A stretch of 62,152 bases of DNA from positions 1 to 62,152 of IMG/VR virus record IMGVR_UViG_3300035684_000004. One strand, written 5' to 3'. Origin of the DNA: a virus. Positions 18,838-49,923 of the stretch are shown piece by piece (the stretch's first letter is position 1; each line of letters opens with the position of its first letter). The notes beneath the pieces are model-generated. The model saw only the letters and a program-made list of their open reading frames with translations, ran no database searches and had not been told where the DNA came from. The translations under genes and the position numbers were made by a program.

Positions 18838-20313
18838 TCAGACGGTGAGGTCGGTGACGTCGCGGACCAGGAACTGGCTGACCTCGCCGTAGACCGCGCG
18901 TGTGGTCGGGGTGTTGCCGAGCACGAAGTCGAAGCGCAGGGTGTCCGTGCCGGCGGGAGTGGTGAACCGGCGGTGCGCGACCGCGTAGGTGTCCAGCACG
19001 CCGGACAGGTGACAGCACCACGTGTAGGAGCCGGTGTTGGAGCCCGACCCGCGGGGGATGCAGCCGAAGGAGAAGTTGGTGCCGTTGACGGCGTCGCTCT
19101 CGAGGTCGACATGCACCAGGGCGCTGACCTCGTACGTACGCCCGCCCTGAACGCCGGTGACATCTGCGCGCCAGAAGTTGGACCCCGGCGCGGTGCTCTG
19201 GGCCAAGCTGATGCGCTGCCACTTCCCGTAGGTGGCGGCGGGCGTCGACAGGCTCGGGGTGCCGACCTTGCTGAGGCCGTCTGCGAGGCCGTCGGCGTTG
19301 GTGTCAGTGTTGAACAGGCCGCCGCCGGTGACGAGGTTCTGCTGGGTCAGGATCGACGTCGAGAGCGGGGGAGCGCCGTTGCGGAACCTGCTGGTGAAGC
19401 GGGTGTCGGCTAGGGCTGCCTGCGCGATGGCGAGGTGCCCGGCCTGGTTGGGGTGGACGTTGTCCAGCTTGAGCGTTGACCGGTACAGGCCGGTGGCGGG
19501 GTCGACCAGGGCGCTGTGGGCGTCGATGATGGGGTAGCCGTAGGCGCGGTGGAGCTCCCAGATCCACGCGTTCCACTGCTGGACGTAGCCGTTGACCGTC
19601 GTGCTGTCGTCGCGCGGAGGGATCGTCCACAGCCCCGGGGTGATCCCCGCAGATTCAAGGGCGGCGCGGATGCGTGCGTGCGTGGCCTGCGACTCGGCGA
19701 ACGAGTAGCCCACGGCGCCGACGTCGTTGGTGCCGAGCGCGATGGTGACGACCTCGGGACGCGGCGTGATCGCCAGGACTGTCGGCAGCAGTGTCGACTC
19801 GCCCTGGGCCAGGGTGTAGCCGCTGGTTCCCACGTCGCCCCGGTAGCGGACCGTCTGGCGTGAGAGAAGCCCGAGCTGCCGATGCCAGGCCATGCCGTAG
19901 GAGGTCTGGTAGGCGGTGATCGAGTCGCCCATCGCCACGTGCCCGATCGGCTGGCGCCGGGGAACATAGGTGCCCGGTAGGGCGGCGAGCGCGGCCCGGA
20001 TGTCCCCACCGGGAGCGCCCTCCGCGGCGCCCGTCAGGTCCTTCCCCGTGGACGTCACGACCCCCACGTCACCCCGCGGCGCGCCCTTGTAGTCGAGCAT
20101 CTTCAGGTACAGCGTGGCGGTCGAGCTGTAGAACTCGGCGGTGCCCTGCGGGGTCCGGTTCCGCACCGTCGACCCCGACAACCCGTGCGCGTTCGGCACC
20201 GGCGTCACGCCGTCCGCCTCGACGACCGTGACCGGCGTCGACCCGCCGGACGCCGTGTCGACGCGGTACCACGGGCCCCGCTCCACCGCCACGCTGTGCC
20301 TGTACAGAGGCAT
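18838..20313 (-). CDS. SGNH/GDSL hydrolase-domain protein with C-terminal beta-sandwich-like domain
   Basis: 491 aa. Blocks AMGDSIT, GTND and DNVHPN are present. The N-terminal ~95 aa are paralogous to 20354..21898. Confidence 0.8.
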   Translation of the reverse strand: MPLYRHSVAVERGPWYRVDTASGGSTPVTVVEADGVTPVPNAHGLSGSTVRNRTPQGTAEFYSSTATLYLKMLDYKGAPRGDVGVVTSTGKDLTGAAEGAPGGDIRAALAALPGTYVPRRQPIGHVAMGDSITAYQTSYGMAWHRQLGLLSRQTVRYRGDVGTSGYTLAQGESTLLPTVLAITPRPEVVTIALGTNDVGAVGYSFAESQATHARIRAALESAGITPGLWTIPPRDDSTTVNGYVQQWNAWIWELHRAYGYPIIDAHSALVDPATGLYRSTLKLDNVHPNQAGHLAIAQAALADTRFTSRFRNGAPPLSTSILTQQNLVTGGGLFNTDTNADGLADGLSKVGTPSLSTPAATYGKWQRISLAQSTAPGSNFWRADVTGVQGGRTYEVSALVHVDLESDAVNGTNFSFGCIPRGSGSNTGSYTWCCHLSGVLDTYAVAHRRFTTPAGTDTLRFDFVLGNTPTTRAVYGEVSQFLVRDVTDLTV

Positions 20314-20353
20314 TGCCGTCTCCCTACTCGCAGATCAGTTCAGGTCGTCGAGG

Positions 20354-21898
20354 TCAGCAGCCGATGGACGCGAGCGCCGCGGACGCCTCCGACGCGATCT
20401 TCCGCGCGTACCACTCGACGCCGTAGGTGGTGGGGTGCGTCGCGTCGGTGTCGGTGATGACGTCGGCGTTCCCGGTCCCGGCGAGCGCGCCCACGCGGCC
20501 GTTGCCCGTGATCCACGGCAGGGCGCGGACGCTGCTCGTGCTGGCCCCTCCCGCCGACCTGGCGTACCAGGAGCCGGTCAAGGCATCGAGGAAGACCCAC
20601 GGTCCCGCCGTGGCCTGCAGAGCAGCCAGAACCCCGTCCCGGACGTCGACGTAGTTCCCGTTGCTGGCGTTCGTCAGGTTCGGCGTGAACGGGGCGGCGC
20701 AGATGATCGGTGCAACAGCGGAGTACGCACGGATCGCCGCGAAGAGCGCCGTTGCTTCGGCCTGCAGTGCGGCCTTGCTCTGCCGACTCTGGTCGTTCAA
20801 CCCACCGAACACACCGAACGCCGTGGGTGCCTGAGGCAGGACATCCAACGCAAGCCGCTCACGGAACGTCGTGTAGTTGCCGCTGTTGTTGTTCAGGAAG
20901 CCAGTGCCGCCGACGCTTGAGTCGTACACGGTGTCGAAGCCCAGCAGCCGTCCGACTCTCGGGTAGAGGTCGTACACGTTCTCGCTGCTGGCTCGCTGAC
21001 CGAACGAGTCGCCCAGCACGCCCCAGCTCGCGGCGTTCAGCCGCGCAGGCGCGGCAATCGAGTCGGTCGGCCCCACGGCCATCGCGATGACGCCGTTGGC
21101 GTACCCCTCAAAGCGGATCGTCCGCCACTGCCGGGAGCCGAACGCCAGCTTCGTCCACGACTTCACGTTGCCGCTCTTGCCGTTGACGCCGTAGCTGGTG
21201 GCGATGGGCTCCCCGTCGATGACCCACATGCCGCCGTAGTCGTTGTAGAAGCGGAACTCAACGTCCGGAGCGTCAGTGTCGATCTCCCACGTGGTCCGCT
21301 GCAGGGCGAAGTTGGCGCCCTGGCCGGTGCCTGACGTCCCACCCTGGTAGTACGTGTCGCCGCCAGCGACCACGCTGTTCGTCCGCGCATTGATCCACCG
21401 CACCCGGGGGTCGGACATCAGCATCGTGACTGCGCTCGTGATGGTCGGCGAACCGCCGTTGGCGCCGTGCGTGATGGTCGGCGGTGCCGCCATGACGGTT
21501 CGCGGCTTCTGGCTCAACCGACGCATCGCAGGGTTCGGGCCCACCTGCCCGCGGGTGACCTGCGCCGGCTGGATGAAGACGAGCGGAAGAGATCCGCCGG
21601 GCGGTGCATCGGTGGCAGCAGTCAGGTCCCGTCCGGTGGACGTCACGACCGGGTCGCCGAGCAGGGCGCCCTTGTAGTCGAGGTGCTTGAGGTACAGCGT
21701 CTGCGTCGTCGACACGAAGTCGCACGTGCCCTGCTCCGTCCGGGGCCCGACGGTCGACCCGGACCCGCCGAACGCATTCGCGACCGGCGTGACGCCGTCG
21801 AGCTCGAGCACCGTCACCGCGCTGTCCACCCCGGACGACGAGTCCACCCGGTACCACTCCCGCCACGCCAGCGGCGCCCGGTGCCTGTACAGCGGCAT
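20354..21898 (-). CDS. SGNH/GDSL hydrolase-domain protein (paralogous N-terminus)
   Basis: 514 aa. Blocks VLGDSFG, GGLND and DATHP are present. It shares the MPLYRH...WYRVD...DGVTPV...TLYLK.LDYKGA N-terminal domain. Confidence 0.8.
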   Translation of the reverse strand: MPLYRHRAPLAWREWYRVDSSSGVDSAVTVLELDGVTPVANAFGGSGSTVGPRTEQGTCDFVSTTQTLYLKHLDYKGALLGDPVVTSTGRDLTAATDAPPGGSLPLVFIQPAQVTRGQVGPNPAMRRLSQKPRTVMAAPPTITHGANGGSPTITSAVTMLMSDPRVRWINARTNSVVAGGDTYYQGGTSGTGQGANFALQRTTWEIDTDAPDVEFRFYNDYGGMWVIDGEPIATSYGVNGKSGNVKSWTKLAFGSRQWRTIRFEGYANGVIAMAVGPTDSIAAPARLNAASWGVLGDSFGQRASSENVYDLYPRVGRLLGFDTVYDSSVGGTGFLNNNSGNYTTFRERLALDVLPQAPTAFGVFGGLNDQSRQSKAALQAEATALFAAIRAYSAVAPIICAAPFTPNLTNASNGNYVDVRDGVLAALQATAGPWVFLDALTGSWYARSAGGASTSSVRALPWITGNGRVGALAGTGNADVITDTDATHPTTYGVEWYARKIASEASAALASIGC

Positions 21899-21941
21899 TG
21901 CTCTCTCCCTGGATCAGCGCCACGCCAGCCGTGGCCGTGCC

Positions 21942-22823
21942 CTACTTCCCGGCGAGCGCCCCGCGGACGGTGCGCCACGCGGCGTCCGTCCCCGGCCCCC
22001 ACACGCCGTCCACCCCGAGGCCGGGCACCAGCGCCCGCCACGCCGTCTGCAGCGCCCGCACCGTCCGCGCGTGCGACGTCTTCGACTGCGCCCCCCACGC
22101 GCCGTCGACGTGCGCGCCGCACGCGGCCTGCGCCGCCCGGACCTGGGCCTCGGTGCCGGCGCCGTCGCGGAGCTCCCGGACGGCGGTCACGGCCCGGTCC
22201 GTCTGCGGGCCCCACGCACCGTCGACGCCGACGTGCACGGCCCGCTGCGTCGCGAGCACGACCGCGCGCTGCTTCGGGACCGCCGTCGTGCCGCCCGTGA
22301 GCGGCTTCCCGTCGAGCAGCTTCGCGTACTCCCCGAGCAGCTGCCCCGGGCACGACGTCGGGTGGAACGTGAAGTGCGGCTCCACCTCGAGACCGGAGCC
22401 GGCGGCGCGGGACTGCTGCACCCACCACCCCAGCGCGCCGAGCGCCTCCGTCGTCGGGGGCCGGCCGTCGTTCAGGTGCACGAACGCGTGGAACCGGTCG
22501 TTCCCGTCGTTCGAGCCCTGCGCGGCCGTCCTCACGCCCAGGCCCCGCCCGGCGAACGCGTACCCGTGCTGGCAGAACCCGCCGCTGTACGCGATGTCGT
22601 TCCACCCGCGGGGCTGCTCCATGTGCATCTGCTGCCAGCGCCGCCAGATCGCCTCGCACACCGTGTGCGACCGGATCGTCAGCGGGTCCCCGCCGTAGTG
22701 GACGGCGACGCCGCCGGGGTTGGTGTCGATCTGGTGGGACACGCTGCGGGGCGCGACGAGGCCGAGCTGCGCGCGCGCGCGGAATCCGACGATCCGCGGC
22801 CGGACCAGCGTCAGGCCGGTCAC
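21942..22823 (-). CDS. Endolysin: N-acetylmuramoyl-L-alanine amidase (Amidase_2/PGRP-like) + PG-binding repeats
   Basis: 293 aa from GTG 22823. Contains AVHYGG...WNDIAYSGGFCQHG, plus three VDGAWGPQT-type repeats. Confidence 0.88.
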   Translation of the reverse strand: MTGLTLVRPRIVGFRARAQLGLVAPRSVSHQIDTNPGGVAVHYGGDPLTIRSHTVCEAIWRRWQQMHMEQPRGWNDIAYSGGFCQHGYAFAGRGLGVRTAAQGSNDGNDRFHAFVHLNDGRPPTTEALGALGWWVQQSRAAGSGLEVEPHFTFHPTSCPGQLLGEYAKLLDGKPLTGGTTAVPKQRAVVLATQRAVHVGVDGAWGPQTDRAVTAVRELRDGAGTEAQVRAAQAACGAHVDGAWGAQSKTSHARTVRALQTAWRALVPGLGVDGVWGPGTDAAWRTVRGALAGK

Positions 22824-22969
22824 GCCGGCCCGCCCTCGATGTCGTCGTCGCCGGCGTCGAGGGGCTCGCCGCCCTGCCCGGTGGGCGCGACGTCCGGGTC
22901 GGGGATGACGAGCGGGTCGGGGACCGCCACCCATCCCGCCCCGGTGTCGACGTGCTTCGCGTCGGCCAT
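22820..22969 (-). CDS. Small acidic ORF (49 aa)
   Basis: ATG 22969 lies 3 nt after the upstream stop, and its TGA overlaps the endolysin GTG (GTGA). Below the ORF-track size cut-off. Confidence 0.45.
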   Translation of the reverse strand: MADAKHVDTGAGWVAVPDPLVIPDPDVAPTGQGGEPLDAGDDDIEGGPA

Positions 22970-26172: not shown

Positions 26173-28062
26173 TCACCTACCGGGGCGGGGTGAGGGAGGC
26201 TCCGGGGGCCCGCTGGGACGCGCGGAGTCGCCCTGAGGCTCGCGCTCGCGGCCCGCGGGGGGAGTGGTGGGGGGCTCGCCCTCCGGGTCGCTGGTGTCGC
26301 CGCCGAAGCCGCCACCGCCGCCGGCCGGCGGCTCGTCGCCGTGGTCGTGAGGCTCCGGCTCGACGTACGGCACCCCGAGGTACTTCGCGGCCGCCTCCAC
26401 GTTCCCCGTCGCCTCGACGATCCCCACCGCGATCTCCGTGCGCTCGGACTGGATCCGCTGCACCTCGGCCTGCGCGTCGTCGATCGGGACGCCAGCCTCC
26501 ATCAGCATCATGACCGCAGTCAGCGTGCTGATCGCGCCCTTCGTGAGGAGGTCGCCGACCTCCTGCAGCGTCGCGGCCCGGTCCGCGGGGAGGCCCTTCC
26601 CGAGGACCATCTGGATCGCCGGCAGCGGGCCCGCGGGGATGAGCTGGTTCGCCGACGCGAACGACGCGACCATCTTCCCCAGCAGGTCGTACTTCGCGCG
26701 CCGCACGGCGGTCATCTCCCGCTCGAGGGCCTCCACCGACGCGAACCCCAGCCGCATGCTGTACCCCGACGGGACCTGGTCGGGGGCGACCATCCCGAGC
26801 AGCACCTGCCCCAGCCGGGTGTTCCTCGCGAGCTTCTGCGCCAGCCGGTCGTTCTGCTTGATGAGCGCGTCCAGCGTCCGGGACGTGTCGAGCAGCGACA
26901 GGTCCTGCCCGGCGAACAGGTTCGACCAGCCGGCCGCGCCGGTCTGCGGCGCCTCGGTCAGGCCCTTCCCGACCAGGTGCGGCGACGCGACCGTCTCCGC
27001 GTTCAGCGCGAGGTCGGTGTCCCCCGACGCGATGTCGTCGAGGATCTGCGCGACCGTCGTGAGGATGCTCTTCCCCCACAGGTTCGACCCCGGGTAGTCG
27101 TTCGGCACCCCGATGACCGGCATGAAGTCGACGCCCAGGTCGACGGGCGGCACGAGGAACCGCGCGGCCGCCTTCGGGAACGAGTAGACGTCGCTGCCCT
27201 CGATCTTCGCGGGGTCGTAGTCGGCCTGCTCGTACCAGCACGTCCACCGGGTCGGCTCGTCGCGGTACGGCATCTTCCGCGGCCGGTCCAGGGGGCGCAT
27301 CCGCCACGTCGTCCGCCGGATCCACTCGACGTCCTTCTCGTCCGTCCACTGCCACGCGAGGTGCACGACCGGCGGGTAGTCGGCGTCCTTCCACCCCAGC
27401 TGCACGTACTCCTTCGACGTGATCGCGTCCCAGTGCGGGAAGTAGAACCCGGGGTCGTACCCCGACAGGCGCGGCCGCTTCACGTCACCGTCCCAGTGGA
27501 GCACCAACACCGAGTCCCCGAGCGTGATCGTGCGGTTCTCCGCCTCGACGAGCTTCTGCCCGACCTTCTCCTTCTCGAACCACCGCTTGAGGTACTCCTG
27601 CACCTCCACCGGCAGCGACCCCGCCCCGGGGGTGACGAGCTCCCCGCCGGGGTTCTTCGCCGGCTCGGCGTCCGGGACCCGGAACCGCTGCTCGTCGCCC
27701 AGCACCAGGGACCGGGCGGTGTCGATCAGGTTCTGCGGGTCGCCGTACTCGCGGTACTGCAGCGCCTGCGGGAACGCCACCGGCGACTCCGCGCCGTCCG
27801 CCTCCGTGACCGGCTTCGCGCGCCACATGTGCGACGGGAGCCAGTGCCGGCGCACGTTGTCCGCGTACGCCTGCAGCACCTGGTACGCCAGCAGCCGCCG
27901 GCGGTCGTCCTTCGGGAGCCACGTCCCGATCCCCGGCGCGAGCAGCGTCGGGAGCTGCCCCGCGCCGATGACGTGCGTCAGGCCCGCCCACTGGTCGTGG
28001 AGGAACGGCTGCCGGTACGCCCCCTGGCCGAGCTGGCTCACGTGCTGGCTCTGGATCGTCAC
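26173..28062 (-). CDS. Portal protein
   Basis: 629 aa. It is the first large ORF after TerL and precedes the scaffold. Has a Gly/Pro-rich C-terminal tail. Confidence 0.8.
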   Translation of the reverse strand: MTIQSQHVSQLGQGAYRQPFLHDQWAGLTHVIGAGQLPTLLAPGIGTWLPKDDRRRLLAYQVLQAYADNVRRHWLPSHMWRAKPVTEADGAESPVAFPQALQYREYGDPQNLIDTARSLVLGDEQRFRVPDAEPAKNPGGELVTPGAGSLPVEVQEYLKRWFEKEKVGQKLVEAENRTITLGDSVLVLHWDGDVKRPRLSGYDPGFYFPHWDAITSKEYVQLGWKDADYPPVVHLAWQWTDEKDVEWIRRTTWRMRPLDRPRKMPYRDEPTRWTCWYEQADYDPAKIEGSDVYSFPKAAARFLVPPVDLGVDFMPVIGVPNDYPGSNLWGKSILTTVAQILDDIASGDTDLALNAETVASPHLVGKGLTEAPQTGAAGWSNLFAGQDLSLLDTSRTLDALIKQNDRLAQKLARNTRLGQVLLGMVAPDQVPSGYSMRLGFASVEALEREMTAVRRAKYDLLGKMVASFASANQLIPAGPLPAIQMVLGKGLPADRAATLQEVGDLLTKGAISTLTAVMMLMEAGVPIDDAQAEVQRIQSERTEIAVGIVEATGNVEAAAKYLGVPYVEPEPHDHGDEPPAGGGGGFGGDTSDPEGEPPTTPPAGREREPQGDSARPSGPPEPPSPRPGR

Positions 28063-28198: not shown

Positions 28199-28468
28199 CT
28201 ACTCCCGGCGTGTCGCCCGCGTCCACGCCTGCCACGTCGCGTCCTGGACGGCGTCCCACACCTCGGCGTGCAGGCCGCGCATCGGCGTGCCCGGCCGCCA
28301 CCCGAACCCGGTCAGGTAGTCGAACCGGAGCCGCTCGGTGAACCGCTGGAACTCGGCGGCTGGCCAGGGATCGCCGGGTCGGGGTCGGTGCTGACGCAGC
28401 CAGGCGTCGACGTCGGCGTCAACTGCTCCGGGGGAGTGTCCGGCCTGCCCGTCGGGGTGGCCGGGCAC
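28199..28468 (-). CDS. Hypothetical protein (89 aa)
   Basis: GTG 28468 lies 1 nt after the upstream stop, with GGGGGAG upstream. Confidence 0.5.
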   Translation of the reverse strand: MPGHPDGQAGHSPGAVDADVDAWLRQHRPRPGDPWPAAEFQRFTERLRFDYLTGFGWRPGTPMRGLHAEVWDAVQDATWQAWTRATRRE

Positions 28469-28469
28469 G

Positions 28470-28964
28470 TCACTCCCCCGGTGGGGCTGGGGGGTCGGCG
28501 TCACCACCGTCTCCCCCGTCGTCGCCGTCGTCGGTTTCTCCCCCGTCGTCACCCGGGTCAGTGTCCACGGGCGCCGGTGGGTTCCCGCAGCCTGGGGTGA
28601 CGGGCTGGCAGTCGGCGATCCGGGAGTTCACGATCTCGAACTGCCCGCGGACCACGTACCCGACCCCGACGATCGTCCCTACGAGCACCGCCGCGACGGA
28701 CGCGACCATGAGGGCGTACTCGACGGCGGACGCGCCCCGGTCCCGGACCCGGTCGGCGACGGGCTTCCTCGGCCGGGGGAGCCGCACGCGGACGCCGTCG
28801 TGCTCGACCTCGACACCCCGCGCGGTGCCCGGCAGGTACGGGCGCCGGCCGACGCGGCCGGTGCGGATCCAGTCGATCGCGGCGATCACGCCGAGAGACA
28901 TGACGATGACGGGGATGACGATCGCGAGGAGGCACACGATGCCGGCGAGCACAAGCCTGAGCAT
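28470..28964 (-). CDS. Membrane protein containing a Flp/Tad-type prepilin-like segment
   Basis: 164 aa. An N-terminal TM helix is followed by ADRVRDRG-ASAVEYALMVASVAAVLVG, which matches the Flp signature G/(A,S)xA(I,V)EY(A,G)L plus a hydrophobic helix. Acidic Asp/Gly tail. Confidence 0.6.
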   Translation of the reverse strand: MLRLVLAGIVCLLAIVIPVIVMSLGVIAAIDWIRTGRVGRRPYLPGTARGVEVEHDGVRVRLPRPRKPVADRVRDRGASAVEYALMVASVAAVLVGTIVGVGYVVRGQFEIVNSRIADCQPVTPGCGNPPAPVDTDPGDDGGETDDGDDGGDGGDADPPAPPGE

Positions 28965-29133
28965 GCGTCGGAGTGTGCCAGCGACTCACCCACCCGCCCA
29001 GGGCCAGCGGGCAGGACCCGCCGAACGGACGACCTCGACAACCTCGGCATACCCCCGTCATAAGTCCGCGGTAGGGCCCGACCCCTGACACGACTTCCTA
29101 CGTGCTCGGCGGGCTGGAACCCCCCAGGCGAGT

Positions 29134-29345
29134 TCAGCGGCCGAGGCGCGGGTTCCTCCGGGCGTCCGGGTGCCCGATGTGCCACGCGCGCTTCAAGCTG
29201 TCGTCCCTGCACTCCGTGTGCACTGGTACACGTTCATCGACTTCGCACCCATCCGTTGCCGGTACGCGATCGCGCCGGCCACCGCGGCCTCGCGCGACCA
29301 GTACGGCTTCTTCGCGCACCCCCGGTCCCGTCGCCGCTTCTTCAC
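29134..29345 (-). pseudogene. Small zinc-finger-type ORF interrupted by a -1 frame change near 29215
   Basis: Frame a (GTG 29345, GTGA overlap with the TerL stop) reads VKKRRRDRGCAKKPYWSREAAVAGAIAYRQRMGAKSMNVYQC, then stops. Frame b continues ECRDDSLKRAWHIGHPD to 29134. Confidence 0.45.
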
Positions 29346-30880
29346 CGCGTCCTCCCCCCACCCGACCACCGCTGCGACGACGGCCCGGTCGGGCGCCGCT
29401 CCTGCGACTTCTTCGACCGGTTCGCGGGGAACATCAGCCACCGCAACGCGTGCACCATCGCGTCGACCCGGTCCGGGGACGGCTCGTCCTTGTCGCCCGT
29501 CCACGTCGTCGCCTCGTCCTCGAGCTCCTCGAGCGGGTTCAGGATCGCGCCCGGCTGCGCCAGCGGATGCGAGCTGTCGGGCACGAGCCGGCCCGTGCCG
29601 TCGTCCACCATCGGGATCACCGGCAGGACGTGGTGCACGCGCGGGGGCTTCTGCTCGTACAGCAGCGCGATGGTCTGCGCGCGCAGCCACTTCGACTGGT
29701 TCGGCCCCGACGGAGTCACCCGCACGATCGGCGGCCGCGCGGGCGCGGGGTTCCCGATCCTGCGCTGGTGCTCCACGATCCGGATCCACGCGGCCTTGAG
29801 GATCGACTCGACCATCTCGCCGCCCACGTTGTCCTCGACGATGACGACGTCGACGTCCTGGTCGATGGCCTCCTGCCAGACGACTTCCGCCCACTCCTCC
29901 GGGGTGTACCGCCCGGACAGGTCGTTCAGGACGTACGCGTGGACGTCGCCGTCGAGGCCCACGGTGATGATCCCGGTGAGGTCGGAGACCTCCCCGGACG
30001 TCTTCGCGGGGTCCACGCCGATCGCCTTCACCTGCAGCCGCGGGACGGCGTCCGACCGGAGCCGGCCGTCGTCGATCCACGCCTGCTGCAGCATCGCGCC
30101 CTCGACGTCGGTGAGCAGCTCCCCGTGCAGCTCCTGCCGGCCCAGGCGGGTGCCCTCGTACCGGGCCTGCAGCACCGCCACCGCCGCCGGCGACAGGTTC
30201 GCGAGGTTGTCCGCGGTGTGCCCCCGCGTGACGTGCACCCGCATCCCCTCGGGGCCGTTCACCAGGTCCCGGACGTGCGGCAGGTTCTTCGGGGTCGTCG
30301 TGACGATGACGCGGGGGTCGGTGGCTTCGCGGAGGCAGAACCACAGCTGGTCGAACATGTCCTGCGCGACCTTCCGCGGCCACGCCGCGTACTCGTCGCA
30401 CCAGGCGCCGTCGAACGCGTACCCGCGGATCGCGTCGGGGTCCTCGGCGGAGAACGCCCGGATCATCGTGCCGTCGTCGAGGGTGATGAGCAGCGCCGGG
30501 CTCTTCTTGTAGCTGAACGTGCCGGGCTCGAACACGGCGAGCAGGCCAGCGGACCGGGCCTCGTAGCAGATGGCCTGCACCTCGCGGTGCGTCTTCGCGA
30601 TCACCGCGTAGTGCCCCGGGCCGAGGCCCGCGGCCTGCCGGGCACGGGACCACTTCTTGACCGTCTCCGCGCCGGTGCGGGTCTTCCCCCACCCCCGCCC
30701 GGCGATGATCGCCCACACGTCGTACGGCTCGGCCGGCTCGAGCTGGTCGGGCCGGGCGTGACGCTCCCAGTCGTACTCGCGGCGCTTCAGCTCAGCGATC
30801 AGCGCCCGGGACCGCCGGTACAGCTCGCGGTCGGTGAGGAGCTCGGGTGGCCGCCACGTCGGCGGCCGGTACGTCGTCAC
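29342..30880 (-). CDS. terL: Terminase large subunit
   Basis: 512 aa from GTG 30880. Walker A in AIIAGRGWGKTRTG. The C-terminal nuclease-type region includes IITVGLDGD and VIVEDN. Confidence 0.92.
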   Translation of the reverse strand: MTTYRPPTWRPPELLTDRELYRRSRALIAELKRREYDWERHARPDQLEPAEPYDVWAIIAGRGWGKTRTGAETVKKWSRARQAAGLGPGHYAVIAKTHREVQAICYEARSAGLLAVFEPGTFSYKKSPALLITLDDGTMIRAFSAEDPDAIRGYAFDGAWCDEYAAWPRKVAQDMFDQLWFCLREATDPRVIVTTTPKNLPHVRDLVNGPEGMRVHVTRGHTADNLANLSPAAVAVLQARYEGTRLGRQELHGELLTDVEGAMLQQAWIDDGRLRSDAVPRLQVKAIGVDPAKTSGEVSDLTGIITVGLDGDVHAYVLNDLSGRYTPEEWAEVVWQEAIDQDVDVVIVEDNVGGEMVESILKAAWIRIVEHQRRIGNPAPARPPIVRVTPSGPNQSKWLRAQTIALLYEQKPPRVHHVLPVIPMVDDGTGRLVPDSSHPLAQPGAILNPLEELEDEATTWTGDKDEPSPDRVDAMVHALRWLMFPANRSKKSQERRPTGPSSQRWSGGGRTR

Positions 30881-31044
30881 CAGAGCCACCGGTCCGGGGG
30901 CGCGTCGCGCCGGGACCCGGCCGAGCACGGCGGCCCACCCGCCTGCAGGTAGATCCCGGCGTCGCTCAGCATCCGTCGGCAGGTGCGGCAGTGCTTGAGC
31001 TGCCACCACCGCAGCCGGCGGCCGCACCACTCGCAGCGCTTCAT
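30877..31044 (-). CDS. Small zinc-ribbon ORF (55 aa)
   Basis: ATG 31044 overlaps the RHH stop (ATGA), and its TGA overlaps the TerL GTG. Peptide MKRCEWCGRRLRWWQLKHCRTCRRML (CxxC...CxxC). Below the ORF-track cut-off. Confidence 0.45.
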   Translation of the reverse strand: MKRCEWCGRRLRWWQLKHCRTCRRMLSDAGIYLQAGGPPCSAGSRRDAPPDRWLW

Positions 31045-31250
31045 GAGGGCCGCACCGGGTGGCGCTCGGCGTACTCCCGCAGCGCGGCCTTGATGACCTC
31101 GTGCCGGGTCGTTCCGAGCGCAGCCGCTCGCCGGTCGAGGTAGTCGACACCCGGGCGCCGTACGTCGATCTGCAGGGTCACGACCTCCTCCTCCGGGTTG
31201 CGCTGCTTGCGTGGTCTGCCTGACGGGCGGCCGGTCGGGCGGTAGGGCAT
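31041..31250 (-). CDS. Ribbon-helix-helix (CopG/Arc-like) DNA-binding protein
   Basis: 69 aa. TLQIDVRRPGVDYLDRRAAALGTTRHEVIKAALREY fits a beta strand followed by two helices. Confidence 0.6.
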   Translation of the reverse strand: MPYRPTGRPSGRPRKQRNPEEEVVTLQIDVRRPGVDYLDRRAAALGTTRHEVIKAALREYAERHPVRPS

Positions 31251-41128: not shown

Positions 41129-41934
41129 GCCGTCCCCGCTTCCCGGACGAGGTGCGGGCGCCGCGCCTCGGCGAGCCGGTCGGCGCCGGCCTTCCGCGAC
41201 CCGAGGCCGAACAGGTCCTGGACGCCGACACCCGTGAAGCCGTGCCCGGCCGCGAGCTCCTCCCGCAACCACGCGACGTGGTCGTCGAACGACGTCCCCC
41301 ACGGCGCGCCGTCCCGCCACCCGCCACCGGCGGGAAGTGCCGGGTCCACTGGCGGCGGGGGTGGCGGCGTGGACTGGCGGGCCGCCACCTCCACCGCCTT
41401 CGCCTCGGCGGCCGCCACCCGAGCCGCCAGCTCCTCCAACTGCGCCGCCGCTCGCGCCGCCGCCTTCTTGGCGTCCGTCTCCGCCACGTACCGCCCCAGC
41501 TTCGCCTCCGCCAGCTCGGCGGCCGTGGCGGCGAGGTCGTCGCGGTACTGCAGGCTCGCCCGCCACCGCGACACGATCCGCCACTCCACCACGATCACGA
41601 CCAGGCCGACGCCGAGCGCCTGCCACCGCGGGGACGGCTCGTACACCGACAGCGTGACCGACGCCGCGAGCAGCGCGACGGCGCCCAGTTCGTCGGCGAG
41701 GTGCGCGCGCGGGTCGGTCCACGTCCACAGGACGTACGGCGTCAGGACCAGCGGCACCGCCCACGCCAGGACGCCGAACCCGGCGTGCTGGCCGGCGTGC
41801 AGCTCAAAGCGGCCGACGAGCACCCCGACGGCGAGCAGGGAGACGGTGAACAGTGCCGCCCGGCCCGCCGTCACCAGCTTCTGCGTCCGCGTCCTCGGCG
41901 GCTGGCCAGCGCCGGTCGTCTGCGTCGTGCTCAT
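41125..41934 (-). CDS. Multi-pass membrane protein with coiled-coil C-terminal half
   Basis: 269 aa from ATG 41934 (GGAGGA upstream). About four hydrophobic helices, then an Ala/Glu-rich coil and a PPPPPP linker. Confidence 0.7.
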   Translation of the reverse strand: MSTTQTTGAGQPPRTRTQKLVTAGRAALFTVSLLAVGVLVGRFELHAGQHAGFGVLAWAVPLVLTPYVLWTWTDPRAHLADELGAVALLAASVTLSVYEPSPRWQALGVGLVVIVVEWRIVSRWRASLQYRDDLAATAAELAEAKLGRYVAETDAKKAAARAAAQLEELAARVAAAEAKAVEVAARQSTPPPPPPVDPALPAGGGWRDGAPWGTSFDDHVAWLREELAAGHGFTGVGVQDLFGLGSRKAGADRLAEARRPHLVREAGTA

Positions 41935-42427
41935 CGTCCTCGTCCTCCGTTGCGTCGATCGGGGCTGTCGACCCGGTGCCAGCCTGGCCCGACAGGTCTT
42001 CGGTGGGGTGCTCCTCACGGCGGGGCGCCGGCGGCGGGAGCGGCTCGTCGTCGTCCTCGAACAGGAACGCGTCGAGCTGGTCGTTGCGGCGGCCGCGCAC
42101 CACCGCCACCCCGGCGGCCGCCACGAGGGCGAGGCCCGCCACGGCGAGCACCGCCAGCCACGGGACGCCGCCACCCTGCTCGGTGGCCGGAGCCGCCACG
42201 GGACCGGTGGCGGCCGGTGGCGGGGCGCCGGTGTCCGCTGCCACCGCGACCGCCACCGCGACCACCCCGGCCGCCACCAGCCAGCGCAGCACCGGCCAGG
42301 CGTGCACGAGGTACGGGTGGCGGCGGCCCAGCTCGCCGGCGGCCGCCATCCGGGTGATGCCGTTGACCCTCCGAGTCGCCAGGAGCAGCGCGAGCAGCAC
42401 CAGCGCGACGACGATGACCCAGCGCAT
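41804..42427 (-). CDS. Membrane protein (three hydrophobic segments, acidic tail)
   Basis: 207 aa. ATG 42427 begins MRWVIVVALVLLALLLA. The last ~40 codons overlap the next gene, so the 3' end is uncertain. Confidence 0.6.
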   Translation of the reverse strand: MRWVIVVALVLLALLLATRRVNGITRMAAAGELGRRHPYLVHAWPVLRWLVAAGVVAVAVAVAADTGAPPPAATGPVAAPATEQGGGVPWLAVLAVAGLALVAAAGVAVVRGRRNDQLDAFLFEDDDEPLPPPAPRREEHPTEDLSGQAGTGSTAPIDATEDEDDEHDADDRRWPAAEDADAEAGDGGPGGTVHRLPARRRGARRPL

Positions 42428-43180: not shown

Positions 43181-45700
43181 TCACGCGGTCAGCGCCTCCA
43201 CGTCACGCAGCGCAGCGTCGTCGCGCGCCTCGTCGAGCTCGTCGCCGTCCTCGTCGGCGGGGTCGTAGTCGTCCGGGATGACGAGCGGCTCGTCGAGGAC
43301 GTGCTCGCTGATCGCCCACTCGCCGCGGGCGAGCTGCCGCGCGGTCGCTGGCCGGCCCGGGCGGGTCTTCGTGTGCGCCTCGAGCCGCGGGTACAGCGCC
43401 GGGCGGACGTCCTCGCCGGGGAAGTCGAGCCACAGCGCGACGAGCGTCTCCGTGCTGACCCGCACCCACCGGGTCCCGTCGGGGCCGGCCTGCACCTCGC
43501 CGGGCGGCACGCGCTCGCCGTCCGAGAGCTTGACGTGCTGGGCCGGGTCCGTTTCGGTGAACAGCCGGCGCACCATCGCCTGGAAGTTCGCGGCGCGCTG
43601 CTGCGGGGACGGCCGCGGGCCGGACGCCGGCAGGGACCAGTCGACGGCCGGGTCGTCGTCGCCGTCCTGCGGGCCGTCGACCTGCGCGACGAACCGCTCG
43701 ACGGGGATCCGCGGGTCGGGCGTCTCGTCGGGGTCCGGGCCGAGCTCGTGGGTCACCTCGGCGTCGATCTCGTCGTCCAGCAGGTCGCTCTCGAGCGCGA
43801 CCTGCTGGCGCATGTGCTCGCTCATCGTGTCGTCGTCCTCCTCCAGCTCGGCGAGCGCCAGGTCAGGCGCCGCCTCGGTCTCTTCGTCGGGGTGCACGGG
43901 CTCCTCCTGCTGCGCCGGCGGCCCGGCCGGGGTCGGCGGTGTCGGGGTCGGCGGGGTTGGCTTCGGGGCCTGCTCGATCCACTTCCTGACGGCCGGGTCG
44001 CGCAGCTGCGGCACCTTGCCGTACTTCGACGACAGCCACGTCCCGACGGTGACGACGTCGCGGCGGGCGTACGACGCGCGGCGCGTCGCGGCGCCCGCGA
44101 ACACCTCGGCGGTGGCCTGGTCGAGCTCGTGCCACTCCGGGTGCTTGACCATCCACTCGGCGACCGTGGCGGCGAGCAGCAGCCGGTCGGGGCGCTCGGT
44201 GCGGCGCTTCATCGGCCACCGGTTCTTCTTCTCACCCGCGAGCTCGGCGTAGTGCAGGCCCGGCTGCTCCATCGGGTCGAAGGTCCACGGCTCGGCGCCG
44301 GCGTCGAGGGTGTCCTCGGACAGCGCCATCCGGGCGTCCTCAGGCTTGTCGCACGCGAACGCCATCGACTCAGGAACGAGGTTCCGGAAGTCGGTCGACA
44401 CGTTCTCCTCCGACGGCCGCTGCAGCTCGGTGACGACCTTGAAGCCGGCGGAGCGCCACACCTCGACGCCCCGGGCCCACTCCTCCTCGAACGGGCCCAT
44501 CAGCGGCGCGGCCTCCGCGAACCAAGCCAGGACGAACGGGATCCCGAACTCGGTCCAGCACCGCGGCGTCCACCGGTCCTCGCCGGTGAGGTCGGTGATG
44601 AGCTGCGTCCGCACCGGCACCGCGGCGGCCAGCGCACGGAGCTGCGCCTCGGCTCCCTCCGGCGTGGACTCGAACCAGTGCAGGAACGGCCGGACGAACG
44701 GCACCCACTGCCCGGCCTTGCGGGTGTCGGACGCGATGACAACGATGCCCTGCCGGGCGACGAGCTCGCCGAGCAGGTTCACCTGGAACGCGGTCTTCGC
44801 CGCGCCGCTCTTCCCGGACGAGATCAGCGACGGGGAGCCGACGAAGTCGTCGGTCGGGGTCATCGACCAGCGCGACTCCTTGCGGTCCGCGGTCCACCCG
44901 ACCCGGATCGGCTCCCACACGCCGGCGCCCGCCCGGACCGGGCCCTTCCAGTCGGGCACGTTGTCGAGGTACGCGCTGCGCGAGATGACGAGCTTGGTGC
45001 GGTGCGCGAGCGTCCGGCCGGCCTCGAGCACGGGGTCGATCCGCACGGACCCGGACGGCAGCTTCGCCTTGGCCTCGATCCGCTGCTTCGCGCGGACCAG
45101 GTCCTCGCGGGTGTTCTCGGTGTGCTCGACGAGCACGTGCCGCTCGCCGTTCTTGTCCTCGGCCTTCACCGGGCGGGTGCTGTCGGCGAGGCCGACGGCG
45201 CGCTGCCAGGCGCCGTCCTCGTCGCCGTGGTGGTCCGTGCCGTCGCCGCGGTGCACGGGGTACTGCACGACGACGTGCCACAGCGCGATCAGGCACCCGG
45301 TCGGCAACACGAGCACGATGTGCCAGAACGGCACCGCTCCGATCAGGGTGGTGACCGACCAGACGGCAGCGAGCCACCCGATGGACAGGGCGAGCCGGCG
45401 CCGGTTCCACGGGTTCCGGGACTGCGAGGACCTCCACAGCGCCACGGTGAGCGCGGCGCCGCACGCGCCGAGCATGAACGTCAGGTGCGGGACGTAGTCG
45501 AAGCGGACGGCGAGCGCGTGCCAGCCGAGGCCGAGCAGCGGGACGACGAGCACGAACACCACGAACGGCAGGACCGCGGTGTCCCAGCCGCCCTTAACGA
45601 CGTCGAACAGGCCGCCCTGCCCGCGCCGCCACTGCTGCGGCGCGGGCTGCGCGGTCGGCTTCGGCTTCGCGGTCGTGCGCGGCCGGGTCCTGCTCGCCAC
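43181..45700 (-). CDS. Membrane-anchored FtsK/SpoIIIE/TraB-like ATPase candidate
   Basis: 839 aa. About four N-terminal TM helices. P-loop-like LISSGKSGAAKT, and a Walker-B-like FVLAWFAEAA. The C-terminus is acidic with an RPATARQLARGEW helix. GGAGG precedes GTG 45700. Confidence 0.6.
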   Translation of the reverse strand: MASRTRPRTTAKPKPTAQPAPQQWRRGQGGLFDVVKGGWDTAVLPFVVFVLVVPLLGLGWHALAVRFDYVPHLTFMLGACGAALTVALWRSSQSRNPWNRRRLALSIGWLAAVWSVTTLIGAVPFWHIVLVLPTGCLIALWHVVVQYPVHRGDGTDHHGDEDGAWQRAVGLADSTRPVKAEDKNGERHVLVEHTENTREDLVRAKQRIEAKAKLPSGSVRIDPVLEAGRTLAHRTKLVISRSAYLDNVPDWKGPVRAGAGVWEPIRVGWTADRKESRWSMTPTDDFVGSPSLISSGKSGAAKTAFQVNLLGELVARQGIVVIASDTRKAGQWVPFVRPFLHWFESTPEGAEAQLRALAAAVPVRTQLITDLTGEDRWTPRCWTEFGIPFVLAWFAEAAPLMGPFEEEWARGVEVWRSAGFKVVTELQRPSEENVSTDFRNLVPESMAFACDKPEDARMALSEDTLDAGAEPWTFDPMEQPGLHYAELAGEKKNRWPMKRRTERPDRLLLAATVAEWMVKHPEWHELDQATAEVFAGAATRRASYARRDVVTVGTWLSSKYGKVPQLRDPAVRKWIEQAPKPTPPTPTPPTPAGPPAQQEEPVHPDEETEAAPDLALAELEEDDDTMSEHMRQQVALESDLLDDEIDAEVTHELGPDPDETPDPRIPVERFVAQVDGPQDGDDDPAVDWSLPASGPRPSPQQRAANFQAMVRRLFTETDPAQHVKLSDGERVPPGEVQAGPDGTRWVRVSTETLVALWLDFPGEDVRPALYPRLEAHTKTRPGRPATARQLARGEWAISEHVLDEPLVIPDDYDPADEDGDELDEARDDAALRDVEALTA

Positions 45701-47072: not shown

Positions 47073-47300
47073 TCAGAGCTCAACCGTCTCGTCGTTGCAC
47101 AGCGGGCAGGTGTCGTCGTCGTGCCCCCGGGGCGGGATCTGCCACACCACCAGCCAGACGATGAGACCTGCCAGGCCGAGGACCCGGAGCAGGGTGGCCA
47201 GGCCGTCGTTCGGGGTGTCGAACGCGAGGCCCATGCCGGTCAGCAGGCTCGCGGCCGAGGCGATCAGGACGACGCGCATGGCGATCAGGTTGTGGAACAT
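47073..47300 (-). CDS. Small two-helix membrane protein (75 aa)
   Basis: ATG 47300 with CAGCGGAGGG upstream. Has two hydrophobic helices and a C-terminal CPLC. Confidence 0.7.
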   Translation of the reverse strand: MFHNLIAMRVVLIASAASLLTGMGLAFDTPNDGLATLLRVLGLAGLIVWLVVWQIPPRGHDDDTCPLCNDETVEL

Positions 47301-47389: not shown

Positions 47390-48292
47390 TCAGGCGCCGC
47401 CCAGGTAGTCCGCACACGCCAGCTCGACCGCCCGCCACAGCGGCATCTCCCGGTCGCCGGCGTCCCGCCGGACCTTCTTCGCCGCCCGGACGATGACCGC
47501 AGCGGCGTCCGGCGGCACCGCCCGCGTCCCGAGCATGGACTCCACCGGCACGTGCTCCTTCCGGCGCGGCTCGCCGTCGCCGTCGAGCCAGCCGGCCTGC
47601 GTCGCTTCGAGGTTCGCCTCGAACACGTCGAGGATCAGGCCCAGCGCCGTGGCGACGTTCCCGACCTTCCACGCGGCGTGCGCCGTCTCGAGCGCGTCCA
47701 GCGTCGGGTCGTACTGCGCGAGCGCGGCGACCCACCGGCCCGCGACCGTGCCGGCGAGCTTCCGGGCGTCGTCCAAGGCCTGCTGCGCCCGCTCGAGCTC
47801 GGCGGGCAGGAACACCAGCGTCACCGTCTGGAAGTCCAGGTTCGCCTCGGACAGGCCCTGCACGTCAACCTTCGTCAGCAGGTCGAGGGTCTTGTCGTCG
47901 AGGCCCGCGTACGCCCGCCAGTCGACGTCGTCGAGCTGCTCGTACAGCGCCTTGAGCGTGGCCGGGTCGTCCTCGCCCTCGATCGCGTTGTGCGACAGCT
48001 GCCGGGCGATGATCTGCTGCTTGGACTGCTCATCGCGGACGACGAGCACGTGGTCCTCATGGTCGCGGCCGAGCGCCGTCATCGCGGCCTCGATCCGGTG
48101 GTGCCCGGACACGATGTCCCCGGGCACGGCCGGGTCAGGCTCGTAGATCAGGGGGAGGGACGTGAGCCGGCCGTCGGCGCGGATGTTCGCGACCAGCCGG
48201 TCGAACGTCTCCTTCCGCATAAACCGCGCGTTGACCGCCTGCGGGTTGAAGTCGGCGAGGCGCCGCTTCTGGATCTCGACGTTCAGGGTCAT
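47390..48292 (-). CDS. ParB-like nuclease (ParBc/Srx) domain protein
   Basis: 300 aa from ATG 48292 (ATGA overlap). N-terminal LPLIYEPDPAVPGDIVSGHHRIEAA motif. Confidence 0.72.
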   Translation of the reverse strand: MTLNVEIQKRRLADFNPQAVNARFMRKETFDRLVANIRADGRLTSLPLIYEPDPAVPGDIVSGHHRIEAAMTALGRDHEDHVLVVRDEQSKQQIIARQLSHNAIEGEDDPATLKALYEQLDDVDWRAYAGLDDKTLDLLTKVDVQGLSEANLDFQTVTLVFLPAELERAQQALDDARKLAGTVAGRWVAALAQYDPTLDALETAHAAWKVGNVATALGLILDVFEANLEATQAGWLDGDGEPRRKEHVPVESMLGTRAVPPDAAAVIVRAAKKVRRDAGDREMPLWRAVELACADYLGGA

Positions 48293-49680
48293 GCCGGCCA
48301 CCTCTGGTCGCTCGAGTGCTTGTCCATCCACGTGGCGAGCGCGCCGGCGAGGTCCCACGCCCCCAGCGGGCCCTCGTAGTTCAGCATGTAGCGGTGCACG
48401 CCGTCCTTGGCCGTGCCGCCCTCGCCGCCGTCCTCCCGCTTCGCGAGCTTCATGCCGGGGATCCCGCGGCCGTACTTCGCGGACTGCGGGTTGTCGCTGA
48501 ACGCGGTCGTCAGCACGGTCCGGAGCCGGCGGGACAGGGGCCGCTGCAGGAGATGCCGGGCCTCGTCGCTCATGGCGGCCATCACGATCAGCTTCGAGAG
48601 GCGGCGGTACTGCGTCCACGCGACGGGGAAGTCGGACAGCAGGTACGCCTGCGACGGCTCGTACTTCGGGCCGCTGTACGCGAACGCGCCGATCAGCTTC
48701 CCGCCCGCGGAGACGCCGACGGCGAGCAGCGGGCTGCCCGGCAGGATGCTCTTGTTCATGAACTGCGAGCGGAGCGCGGAGAACTCCGGGCCGGTGAGCA
48801 CGTGCAGGCGCAGCGGGCCCTCGAGGTCCTCCCACGGGCCGAGCTTCGGCATCAGCACCGGCGCGGTCTGCTGCCGGGGCTGCACGATCCGGGTGGTCAT
48901 GCCCGCGCTGTACACGTAGATCGAGACGCCCCGGTTCGTCGTCTGCACCACACCCCGGAGGTGCTCGCGCAGCTCCGGGCGCTCAACGTGCAGGCCGAGG
49001 ATCCACGCGGGCCGCTCGACGACCAGGCGGACGAGCTCGTCCTTGCCGTGCTCGTCGAGCGGCGGGTACGTCGGCGCCGGCCAGTCGAAGAACGTGTCGA
49101 TGCCCGCGAACTGCTGCTCGTAGTCGCCGCGGGCCTTCCCGTCGCTGGTGCGCTCGCCGCCGTAGAACGGCGGGAACATCACGACCGGCGCGGCTGGTGG
49201 GGCGACGTCGGCGACGAACTCGCGAACGTCCATCGGGGAGAACGACGCGAGCTGCAGGGTGAGGCCCTCGAGCTTCGCGCGGGTCTTCCCGTGCATGGTG
49301 GGCCACTGCTCGCGGGTCGCGGCGAGCATCCGCTCGTAGTAGCGGCCGGTCTTGCCGATCAGGCCGAGGAACCGGGTGCCGAGCATCAGGGTCGCCATCG
49401 TCCCGGCGCGGCCGTCGAGGTACGGCGCGAGCCAGTCGAGCCGCTCGGCGTGCTCTGGCTTGAGCGTGAACGGGAGCTCGGCGCCGGTGAGGTACCAGCC
49501 GAGCGCGCAGGAGTAGCCGGTGACGTCGTTGCTGTGGAGCCGACACCCGCGGTCGGCGAGCACCCGTTCCAGGGTCATGTTGCCCGAGCACCCGACGTAC
49601 ACGTCGTCGTCGGGGCCCCACTCCGCGGACCGCTCCCAGACCAGCGAGCGCATGTCGCCGGGTATCGAACCGTGGAACAC
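48289..49680 (-). CDS. D12-class adenine-methyltransferase-like protein with degenerate motif IV (FPPF) and an unknown C-terminal domain
   Basis: 463 aa from GTG 49680 (CAGCGGAGGAG 7 nt upstream). YVGCSGNMT resembles motif I. VVMFPPFYGG sits where DPPY is expected. Confidence 0.5.
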   Translation of the reverse strand: MFHGSIPGDMRSLVWERSAEWGPDDDVYVGCSGNMTLERVLADRGCRLHSNDVTGYSCALGWYLTGAELPFTLKPEHAERLDWLAPYLDGRAGTMATLMLGTRFLGLIGKTGRYYERMLAATREQWPTMHGKTRAKLEGLTLQLASFSPMDVREFVADVAPPAAPVVMFPPFYGGERTSDGKARGDYEQQFAGIDTFFDWPAPTYPPLDEHGKDELVRLVVERPAWILGLHVERPELREHLRGVVQTTNRGVSIYVYSAGMTTRIVQPRQQTAPVLMPKLGPWEDLEGPLRLHVLTGPEFSALRSQFMNKSILPGSPLLAVGVSAGGKLIGAFAYSGPKYEPSQAYLLSDFPVAWTQYRRLSKLIVMAAMSDEARHLLQRPLSRRLRTVLTTAFSDNPQSAKYGRGIPGMKLAKREDGGEGGTAKDGVHRYMLNYEGPLGAWDLAGALATWMDKHSSDQRWPA

Positions 49681-49795
49681 GGGGGCCTCCTCCGCTGAGA
49701 CGGCGTCGCCCCCGGGGGCAGTCGGCCAGGAACCTTGCGGAGGAACCGACATGACCACACCCGGGGGCGACAGGGGCCGGTCCCGGGGGACCGAG

Positions 49796-49867: not shown

Positions 49868-49870
49868 GTG

Positions 49871-49904
49871 GTCGCCCACCCGCACGGGGGTTCGGGTGGG
49901 CGAC
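49871..49904 (-). terminator. 12-bp hairpin immediately 5' of the tRNA
   Basis: GTCGCCCACCCG / CGGGTGGGCGAC arms read directly. Confidence 0.5.
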
Positions 49905-49923
49905 TGAACGGCACAGTACCGGA

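Follow-up and report, generated by a model that had tools for sequence, protein, structure and literature searches.

We report that a gene of the virus IMGVR_UViG_3300035684_000004 encodes a protein which, by its sequence, belongs to the lineage of Flp (Tad, type IVc) major pilins and is carried by a phage. The gene occupies positions 28470-28964, minus strand, of the 62,152-nucleotide (nt) stretch analysed here (the window), and its product, P0001, is 164 amino acids (aa) long. Phages probably acquired the gene from an actinobacterial host, and it was later altered by the addition of a leader containing a transmembrane (TM) helix and of an acidic, low-complexity tail. Because a true Flp relative has been kept at the same place in related phages, these phages probably tamper with the pili of their hosts.

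An earlier note on this DNA had read a Flp prepilin signature in this open reading frame (ORF), and we confirmed both the motif, RDRG77/A78SAVEYAL, and the hydrophobic helix that follows it. Scanning the six frames of the window for the corresponding pattern (G-x4-E-[YF] and then an uncharged hydrophobic 20-mer) gave a single occurrence, and 0 of 100 second-order Markov shuffles contained it. P0001 scored 23.6 bits (E=4.4e-5) against Pfam Flp_Fap (PF04964), whose gathering score is 32.2 bits. Five relatives of the same TM-anchored architecture exceeded that cut-off (P0047, 40.5; P0162, 39.6; P0045, 37.7; P0160, 34.6; and P0161, 34.1 bits), and P0042 reached 29.8 bits; P0001 aligns with the TM-anchored relatives over its full length. 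A word-indexed protein search matched P0001 to itself alone, and phmmer, run exhaustively against 1.84 billion representatives, gave 134 other proteins at E<=1e-3 (best 2.5e-9), all with G-x4-EY, mostly 50-110 aa long and aligned to query residues ~70-130. The G-x4-E-[YF] pattern was present in all of the non-portal proteins collected (243/243). By BLASTP, P0001 is 54% identical to P0223, a 72-aa Flp pilin, over 57 aa running from RDRG through the helix to the second Cys.

Profiles built from the family extended these matches. A profile of the TM-anchored forms gathered 1317 proteins, many of which bear the JGI names Flp/PilA-type pilus assembly protein or pilin, with the anchored forms ranking at the top. 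Searched against the PDB, the family profile matched the Tad pilin of C. crescentus (8U1K, E=5e-9) and the Flp pilin 8U2B/8UCR (E=6e-8). Its columns ASAVEYGL align with residues 1-8 of the mature 8U1K chain; since the alignment starts at mature residue 1, the predicted cut site coincides with a known mature N-terminus. The profile searches and TM prediction that the earlier note had suggested thus gave a Flp_Fap match, below the cut-off for P0001 and above it for five relatives, and the TM helices. TadE was the part that failed, with no match at E<=1 for P0001 nor at E<=0.1 for seven TM-extended relatives. No PHROG family matched P0001 or its relatives, two cellular Flp pilins weakly matching phrog_28873, and an NCBIfam search returned nothing meaningful. 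We conclude that P0001 is almost certainly a true homologue of Flp/Tad pilins and not a look-alike, and the Flp identity advanced in the earlier note stands.

The gene and the segments of its product are as follows.

28470-28964 including the stop codon, minus strand: TM-anchored Flp-pilin-like gene encoding P0001, 164 aa (ORF list, sequence, plot of G+C content at third codon positions (GC3), Pfam Flp_Fap).
28863-28964, minus strand: N-terminal TM helix, aa 1-34, predicted N-out/C-in, part of the leader (hydropathy, AlphaFold).
28737-28862, minus strand: basic loop, aa 35-76, predicted cytoplasmic, ending RVRDR (charge count, model, alignments).
28710-28736, minus strand: predicted prepilin-peptidase site and Flp motif, G77/A78-S-A-V-E82-Y83-A84-L85 (alignment, logo, 8U1K match).
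28644-28733, minus strand: hydrophobic alpha-1 helix of the predicted mature pilin, aa 78-107 (hydropathy segment 77-107, AlphaFold, Flp homology).
28587-28643, minus strand: amphipathic end of the helix and two-Cys loop, aa 108-126, with C119 and C126 (Cys counts, BLASTP against P0223).
28473-28586, minus strand: acidic Asp/Gly/Pro-rich C-terminal tail, aa 127-164, predicted extracellular and disordered (composition, GC3).

The extra N-terminal TM helix and the Asp/Gly-rich tail had both been noticed earlier, and both were upheld. Hydropathy peaks at 3.17 across aa 1-35, and aa 1-34 are strongly hydrophobic. The following segment (aa 36-77) holds 12 Lys/Arg against 5 Asp/Glu, a net charge of +7, and the loop includes a weakly conserved DG(V/P)R..P motif. 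The tail counts 38 aa, with 13 Asp/Glu, 10 Gly and no Lys or Arg. An AlphaFold model, built with a 10-sequence alignment, shows two long helices, 2-40 (predicted local distance difference test, pLDDT, ~87) and 75-118 (pLDDT 86-90), with a disordered loop (pLDDT ~50) and tail. Foldseek found no match to the two-helix model in the PDB, as expected for isolated helices. Together, hydropathy, charge and model predict a hairpin with the N-terminus outside, the loop inside, the tail outside and the G77/A78 bond on the cytoplasmic face; the positive-inside rule, which gives the loop-in hairpin, would place that bond where TadV acts.

P0001 was called as a gene on two assemblies. GC3 in its frame climbs to 0.9-1.0 at the ATG (28964), with an in-frame stop seven codons before it, and remains high until ~28600. 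Because GC3 is high from that ATG onward, the N-terminal TM part is coding. GC3 then falls in the P0001 frame over the tail region and rises in the overlapping frame of the next gene. The earlier note had proposed an internal start, a GTG at the Val of KPVADRV, that would yield a canonical prepilin of ~85 aa. Neither candidate codon is a GTG: V69 and V73 are both GTC. The sole in-frame start-type codon between the first TM helix (TM1) and Gly77 is a GTG at codon 60 (window 28787), which would give a 105-aa product with a 17-aa leader. GGAGG or GGAG lies 6-10 nt ahead of the full-length ATG in six relatives, and because of this Shine-Dalgarno site the TM leader is, as far as start signals tell, translated, so that the long form is made. 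We therefore rejected an internal start on the codons themselves, on the GGAGG before the long form in the six relatives and on the conservation of the N-terminal module.

In cells, Flp pilins are cut by TadV and carry Glu5 and Tyr6 (PMC3244431), and a prepilin-peptidase site has Gly (or Ala) at -1, Glu at +5 and Tyr at +6 (PMC3244431, PMC10710030). P0001 resembles them in Gly -1, Ser/Thr2, Glu5 and Tyr6, in a ~20-aa hydrophobic alpha-1 that continues as a single long helix, and in a basic stretch ending (D/E)RG ahead of the cut site. It also has in common with an actinobacterial subgroup of Flp pilins a C-terminal Cys pair: exactly two Cys occur in the mature part of 15/15 anchored and 171/202 short-leader proteins. 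From -3 to +25 the sequence logo is the same in the 15 anchored and the 202 short-leader proteins, and the mature cores of anchored and short-leader proteins are 50-81% identical, with 51-81% between an anchored core and the short-leader pilin that matches it best. Since the anchored cores are about as near to short-leader pilins as to each other, we rejected the idea that they form a clade of phages only. The mature core of P0162 (contig L010) is 81% identical to that of the short-leader P0174, and P0162 and P0226 have a C-terminal GPASLGDP stretch in common; this likeness between sequences hints at recent exchange of flp genes between phages and cells.

The differences lie at the two ends of the protein and in its genomic setting. 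Leaders of the anchored phage group measure 48-94 aa and contain a TM helix (77 aa in P0001), against a median of 16 aa in short-leader pilins. The P0001 leader is unlike a class III signal peptide, being strongly hydrophobic over aa 1-34 and hydrophilic and basic only in its last ~40 residues. After the last Cys, the anchored proteins have tails of 5-46 aa (38 in P0001), compared with a median of 3 aa among 170 short-leader pilins; these tails are rich in acidic residues, Ser, Thr, Gly and Pro and lack Lys and Arg in 13/14. The predicted mature part of P0001 is thereby 87 aa, including the 38-aa disordered tail, as against 40-60 aa for a Flp pilin consisting of alpha-1 only. Cellular flp genes sit in a tad locus with tadA, tadB/C and tadV (PMC3244431), whereas the P0001 gene is in the packaging and head module of a phage. 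On a 746-kb contig, the short cellular homologue P0177 is paired in tandem with another flp gene, with T2SSF (TadB/C-type) genes nearby, and a short Flp pilin had no match in a plasmid collection.

Three proteins considered as further anchored forms, P0163, P0165 and P0166, were rejected as tandem Flp-Flp fusions. On contigs of cellular size (85-202 kb), each has two complete Flp prepilin units in one ORF; these may be genuine fusions, or gene calling may have joined neighbouring flp genes.

TadE and TadF (PF07811) have a prepilin-type site with Glu5, are processed by TadV and are larger than Flp. The extra length of P0001 differs from theirs in being a disordered tail and not a folded domain, and its closest relatives are all of the major-pilin type. 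TadE and TadF are listed as minor pilins of the Tad system (PMC3244431, PMC10191384).

The position between terminase and portal, which the earlier note gave correctly but considered atypical, is no oddity of this genome. An anchored Flp gene lies between the large terminase and portal genes in eight other related contigs: L008, L009, L010, L011, L013, L088, L089 and L090, of which L088 and L089/L090 were found through the portal. P0047, P0161, P0162 and P0045, all above the Pfam cut-off, were seen at this position, these being the four whose contexts were read. The spacers to the terminase in relatives measure 79-238 nt, and the portals, where they could be matched, are 55-68% identical to the window portal, a protein for which 24 homologues were found. 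In L003, whose portal is 54% identical, the N-terminal TM module stands alone: an ORF of 69 aa (4230-4439) with the motif DGPRTPW and no Flp part, directly followed by the same conserved gene that lies downstream of P0001. The anchor module may work on its own. No Flp-like ORF was found in L004/L005 (portal 51%), in L006/L007 (43%) or among 70 more distant portal relatives (identity 45% or less).

Between the close pair L013 and L088 the Flp-like gene differs by 10 synonymous and 4 non-synonymous changes, a ratio of non-synonymous to synonymous substitution rates (dN/dS) of 0.14, against 0.05 for the portal; this comparison indicates that the gene is under purifying selection. Although ten anchored proteins are only 29-37% identical to the window copy overall, R76, G77, S79, A80, V81, E82, Y83, L85, A88, V93 and G102 are invariant among them. 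An N-terminal hydrophobic segment is present in 13/14 family members examined (weaker in P0048) as well as in the 69-aa ORF of L003, the loop is net positive in 10/13 scorable members and the tail net negative in 11/14. Megablast and tblastn searches with the region and the protein found no match in 50,697 deposited phage genomes, nor did the more canonical P0162. Three IMG/VR scans (with the portal and with two family alignments) and a search for the back-translated GASAVEYGL DNA pattern gave no confirmed relative.

The window ends carry the same exact 77-bp sequence (1-77 and 62076-62152). Because of this overlap the window is a circular assembly, the complete phage genome of ~62.07 kb and not a prophage within a chromosome. 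Its G+C content is 72.6% and its coding-like ORFs are almost all on the minus strand. From the G+C content, a Streptomyces phage relative and the binning of related contigs (Dermatophilaceae, Micrococcales or Actinomycetes), we infer a high-GC actinobacterium as the host. The relative in question, Streptomyces phage ZL12, is the only deposited one of the window portal (30% identity); its record is plasmid-like, and its terminase-portal interval has no equivalent ORF. A portal-profile scan of a genome collection gave only three distant contigs from metagenome-assembled genomes (Micrococcales, 'Actinomycetes' and a Limnocylindrales bin), none of which holds a Flp-like ORF. Pfam scans of ~30 further ORFs, together with the annotations of the central 20 kb, revealed no Tad component, Peptidase_A24 or integrase, and no repressor was recognised among the phage ORFs scanned. 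The same scans yielded a tape-measure protein, PG_binding_1 proteins, two GDSL hydrolases, a ParB_N-like protein, DUF932 and a DAM-like/GNAT-like protein.

How could such a protein act on a host? Prepilins insert with the hydrophilic leader in the cytoplasm, and the peptidase cuts after the Gly on that face (PMC10191384); in the Tad pilus, the N-terminus of the pilin points inward and the C-terminus outward (PMC11067988). We propose that the full-length 164-aa protein would insert as a hairpin, its N-terminus outside, its loop in the cytoplasm, its Flp helix spanning the membrane and its tail outside. A TadV-type prepilin peptidase of the host would cut at RDRG77/A78, releasing an 87-aa mature pilin from an anchored fragment of 77 aa. 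The mature pilin could then be taken up by the host Tad platform and co-assemble with the host pilin, a step we propose because the mature part keeps every residue shared by cellular Flp pilins. Its tail would point outward and coat the surface of the pilus, and a pilus masked or altered in this way would block pilus-dependent adsorption of the same or of competing phages. The outcome would be superinfection exclusion, or progeny protected from dead-end adsorption. Some functional engagement with the host Tad system is fairly probable. The chain as a whole, from cleavage through incorporation to exclusion, is a tentative proposal whose chances we place a little short of even, and the specific outcome of masking or exclusion, drawn by analogy, is somewhat more doubtful.

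We favour masking, which parallels phage homologues of FimU and PilA that enter pili and block adsorption (PMC12952977), and on the same analogy the earlier suggestions of cleavage, of a decoy or poison pilin and of superinfection exclusion are reasonable. These type IVa pilin homologues comprise P-FimU of F10-like Pseudomonas prophages and PilA-like proteins of Xylella prophages and virulent Pseudomonas phages. They block pilus-dependent adsorption by incorporation or by inhibition of assembly, a role shown for P-FimU and proposed for P-PilA (PMC12952977). As in those phages, a pilus subunit homologue is present here, in a phage context in nine contigs, and no assembly machinery was found among the ORFs scanned. 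The P-FimU/P-PilA copies are diverse, some of them in non-temperate phages; they are type IVa proteins with ordinary short leaders from phages of Gram-negative hosts, whereas P0001 is of the Flp/Tad class, comes from an actinobacterial phage and has an anchored leader and an added tail. A second parallel is the haloarchaeal provirus SNJ2, whose pilins PilA1 and PilA2 use the host machinery, come to make up the dominant filaments and are the receptor of another virus (PMC12426801). Like them, P0001 is a virus-encoded pilin that would depend on the host for secretion and assembly; SNJ2, however, is an archaeal, integrated provirus for which no anchored leader is described (PMC12426801).

It is only recently that pilus subunits encoded by phages were shown to act as anti-phage surface disguises, in the type IVa class of Gram-negative hosts and for two archaeal pilins, and our literature searches found nothing on phage-encoded Flp pilins. 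If the proposal is true, the idea would extend to the Tad/Flp class and to phages of Actinobacteria, in which the roles of Tad pili are poorly known. The anchored leader would give direct access to the way in which prepilin peptidases recognise their substrates and set them free, and the family is small and conserved, with clear targets for point mutation or deletion (G77, E82, Y83, TM1 and the tail).

Several points weigh against this proposal. Some concern the window copy, which is the most divergent member of the family: it falls below the Flp_Fap gathering score, alone it gives the same PDB alignment at a non-significant E=0.84, it has no obvious ribosome-binding site, and it carries Ala84 (AVEYAL) where the Flp motif has a conserved Gly at mature position 7 (PMC10710030). 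With Gly7 in 14/15 TM-extended proteins and 80% of short-leader pilins, that Ala is a deviation of the window copy and not of the phage group. Others concern expression. The gene lies inside the late structural block, where no promoter specific to it could be recognised, and late-block timing fits exclusion less well than early or prophage expression would. The leader raises the remaining difficulties. A TM helix in a prepilin leader has not been described for any prepilin in the literature searched, and a leader so tethered might prevent normal processing or release. Masking alone leaves the conserved anchored leader unexplained, which suggests jamming or titration of the Tad pathway, or a second function for the N-terminal fragment; because L003 keeps the N-terminal module alone, that function may even be unrelated to pili. 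Finally, the literature searches returned nothing on Tad pili as phage receptors in Actinobacteria.

The leader is given more weight in an account that we regard as rather unlikely, in which P0001 would belong to a pilin class not described before, a Flp prepilin with a membrane-protein leader, and the host peptidase would mature a two-part phage polyprotein. The anchored 77-aa fragment would then have a role of its own, as its solitary occurrence in L003 would allow, and the tailed pilin would remodel or shut down the Tad pili. In another form of this account, the tethered leader would make the pilin an inhibitor of TadV or the platform that cannot be released. In both forms, Tad pili would prove to be a major arena of conflict for phages of high-GC Gram-positive bacteria, whether they serve as receptor or in the uptake of DNA.

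It is unlikely that the protein acts purely by jamming. Under this explanation its authentic Flp motif would engage TadV or the platform and TM1 would prevent release or extraction, so that a dominant-negative substrate would titrate TadV or plug the TadB/C platform and abolish Tad pili, and the cell would lose a phage receptor, adhesion or the uptake of DNA as a result. The TM-containing leader is indeed conserved across the phage group despite being far longer than the leaders of other pilins, its translation from the Shine-Dalgarno-preceded long start makes it functionally relevant, the peptidase-site residues are invariant, and an inhibitory role in assembly has been proposed for the truncated PilA-like proteins of virulent Pseudomonas phages (PMC12952977). 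A plug, however, would have no need of the retained Cys pair, the amphipathic helix end or the long, variable, outward tail, all of which fit a surface-exposed product better, and we found no precedent for a tethered-leader inhibitor in the literature searches.

Reuse of the Flp helix as the second span of a membrane protein independent of Tad, with the N-terminal module as functional core and a role in lysis timing (holin- or antiholin-like) or as an assembly or packaging anchor, is a distinctly poor prospect. Two TM helices, a highly charged C-terminus (the layout of class II holins) and a place in the late structural block do resemble small phage membrane effectors; the N-terminal module occurs alone in L003, and the conserved soluble partner gene downstream persists where the Flp part is absent. 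A generic span, on the other hand, would hardly keep (D/E)RG/ASAVEYGL and the Cys pair identical to those of cellular pilins at an overall identity of only 29-37%. Neither PHROG nor Pfam gave a match to a holin, and PHROG gave none to any other phage family; the neighbours are a terminase, an uncharacterised soluble protein and a portal, not an endolysin, and the far end of the structural block has other small TM proteins (1447-1956 and 1985-2452).

That the pilin benefits the carrier, the host Tad machine building additional or different pili that alter adhesion, aggregation or biofilm formation, is by analogy conceivable and in our judgement highly improbable. All assembly-relevant pilin features are retained, the SNJ2 viral pilins provide a precedent (PMC12426801), ParB-like genes, present both in the window and in L008, would be compatible with an extrachromosomal prophage, and the one deposited relative, ZL12, is the plasmid-like record. 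Yet no integrase or repressor was recognised among the scanned ORFs, the genome assembles as a free circle, and the gene is embedded in a virion-gene block where a scan of its flanks detected neither a sigma-70-like promoter nor a terminator (Rfam likewise showed nothing of note there). Carrier benefit and a Tad-independent role are both less likely than entry into the Tad pathway with an altered or masked pilus surface.

A chance motif in a hydrophobic stretch of a spurious ORF is scarcely credible: although GC-rich genomes give many long spurious ORFs and the window copy alone misses both the Pfam cut-off and significance against the PDB, in-frame GC3 reaches 0.9-1.0, the motif is absent from the shuffles and the significant matches are to Flp pilins only, and the artefact is refuted by orthologues at the same position in eight other contigs and by purifying selection.

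The genes and intervals around P0001 are the following.

29342-31150 (called 29342-30928), minus strand: large terminase subunit, upstream neighbour, called at 528 aa with a longest ORF of 602 aa (Pfam, PHROG).
28965-29341, minus strand: 377-nt spacer from the terminase stop to the Flp-like gene, coding-like in its upstream part (29134-29341) (GC3 plot, sequence).
28199-28552, minus strand: conserved downstream gene, 101-117 aa, start GTG 28504 or 28552, no TM helix (gene call of 101 aa, homologues).
26173-28062, minus strand: portal protein, downstream neighbour (PHROG portal families).

The terminase matched Pfam Terminase_6N (E=5e-15) and Terminase_6C as well as PHROG terminase families, and the portal is followed by scaffold, HDPD-like and Phage_cap_E capsid genes. 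The conserved downstream gene, the usual neighbour of the Flp-like ORF, has 35-83 nt in common with it, in the part that encodes the acidic tail. The family of the downstream gene, recognisable by ELEAWLRQNR...YLTG.GW.PG, is found at 11 relative loci, including L003 and L004/L005, which have no Flp part, but not L011; it matched nothing in Pfam or PHROG. In L088, the closest relative, two small Cys-rich ORFs (324-751; 71 and 72 aa, with zinc-ribbon-like CxxC) separate the Flp-like gene from the conserved gene downstream of it. Between the terminase stop and the Flp-like gene of the window, coding-like GC3 appears in two successive frames at 29134-29390 (minus strand); the first frame reads ...RGCAKKPYWSREAAVAGAIAYRQRMGAKSMNVYQCTRS and the second ...HTECRDDSLKRAWHIGHPDARRNPRLGR, each ending at a stop. 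This looks like a small Cys/His protein split by a frameshift, whether an assembly error, a pseudogene or recoding, and the merged sequence had no Pfam match.

Further observations concern genes elsewhere in the window, all on the minus strand. A tRNA-Gly(TCC) at 49795-49867 lies inside the 5' end of the longest ORF at 48289-49914, which has DAM-like (PF22555) and GNAT-like (PF22559) domains; because the domain matches begin at aa 80, that gene probably starts downstream of the tRNA. Two GDSL/SGNH hydrolases and a weak PG_binding_1 protein are encoded within the structural block, directly downstream of the capsid gene (18838-22934), and an 856-aa PG_binding_1 protein (4232-6802) a few genes past the tape measure; in L003, a protein with Glyco_hydro_25 and PG_binding_1 is encoded a few genes past the capsid gene. 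Membrane proteins are also predicted at 41804-42427, 43181-45700, 47073-47300, 1447-1956 and 1985-2452, one of them an 839-aa protein with N-terminal TM helices; no family matched those scanned, which were all but 47073-47300. As candidate holins we note the small TM proteins at 1447-1956 and 1985-2452, which lie where the structural block has its far end.

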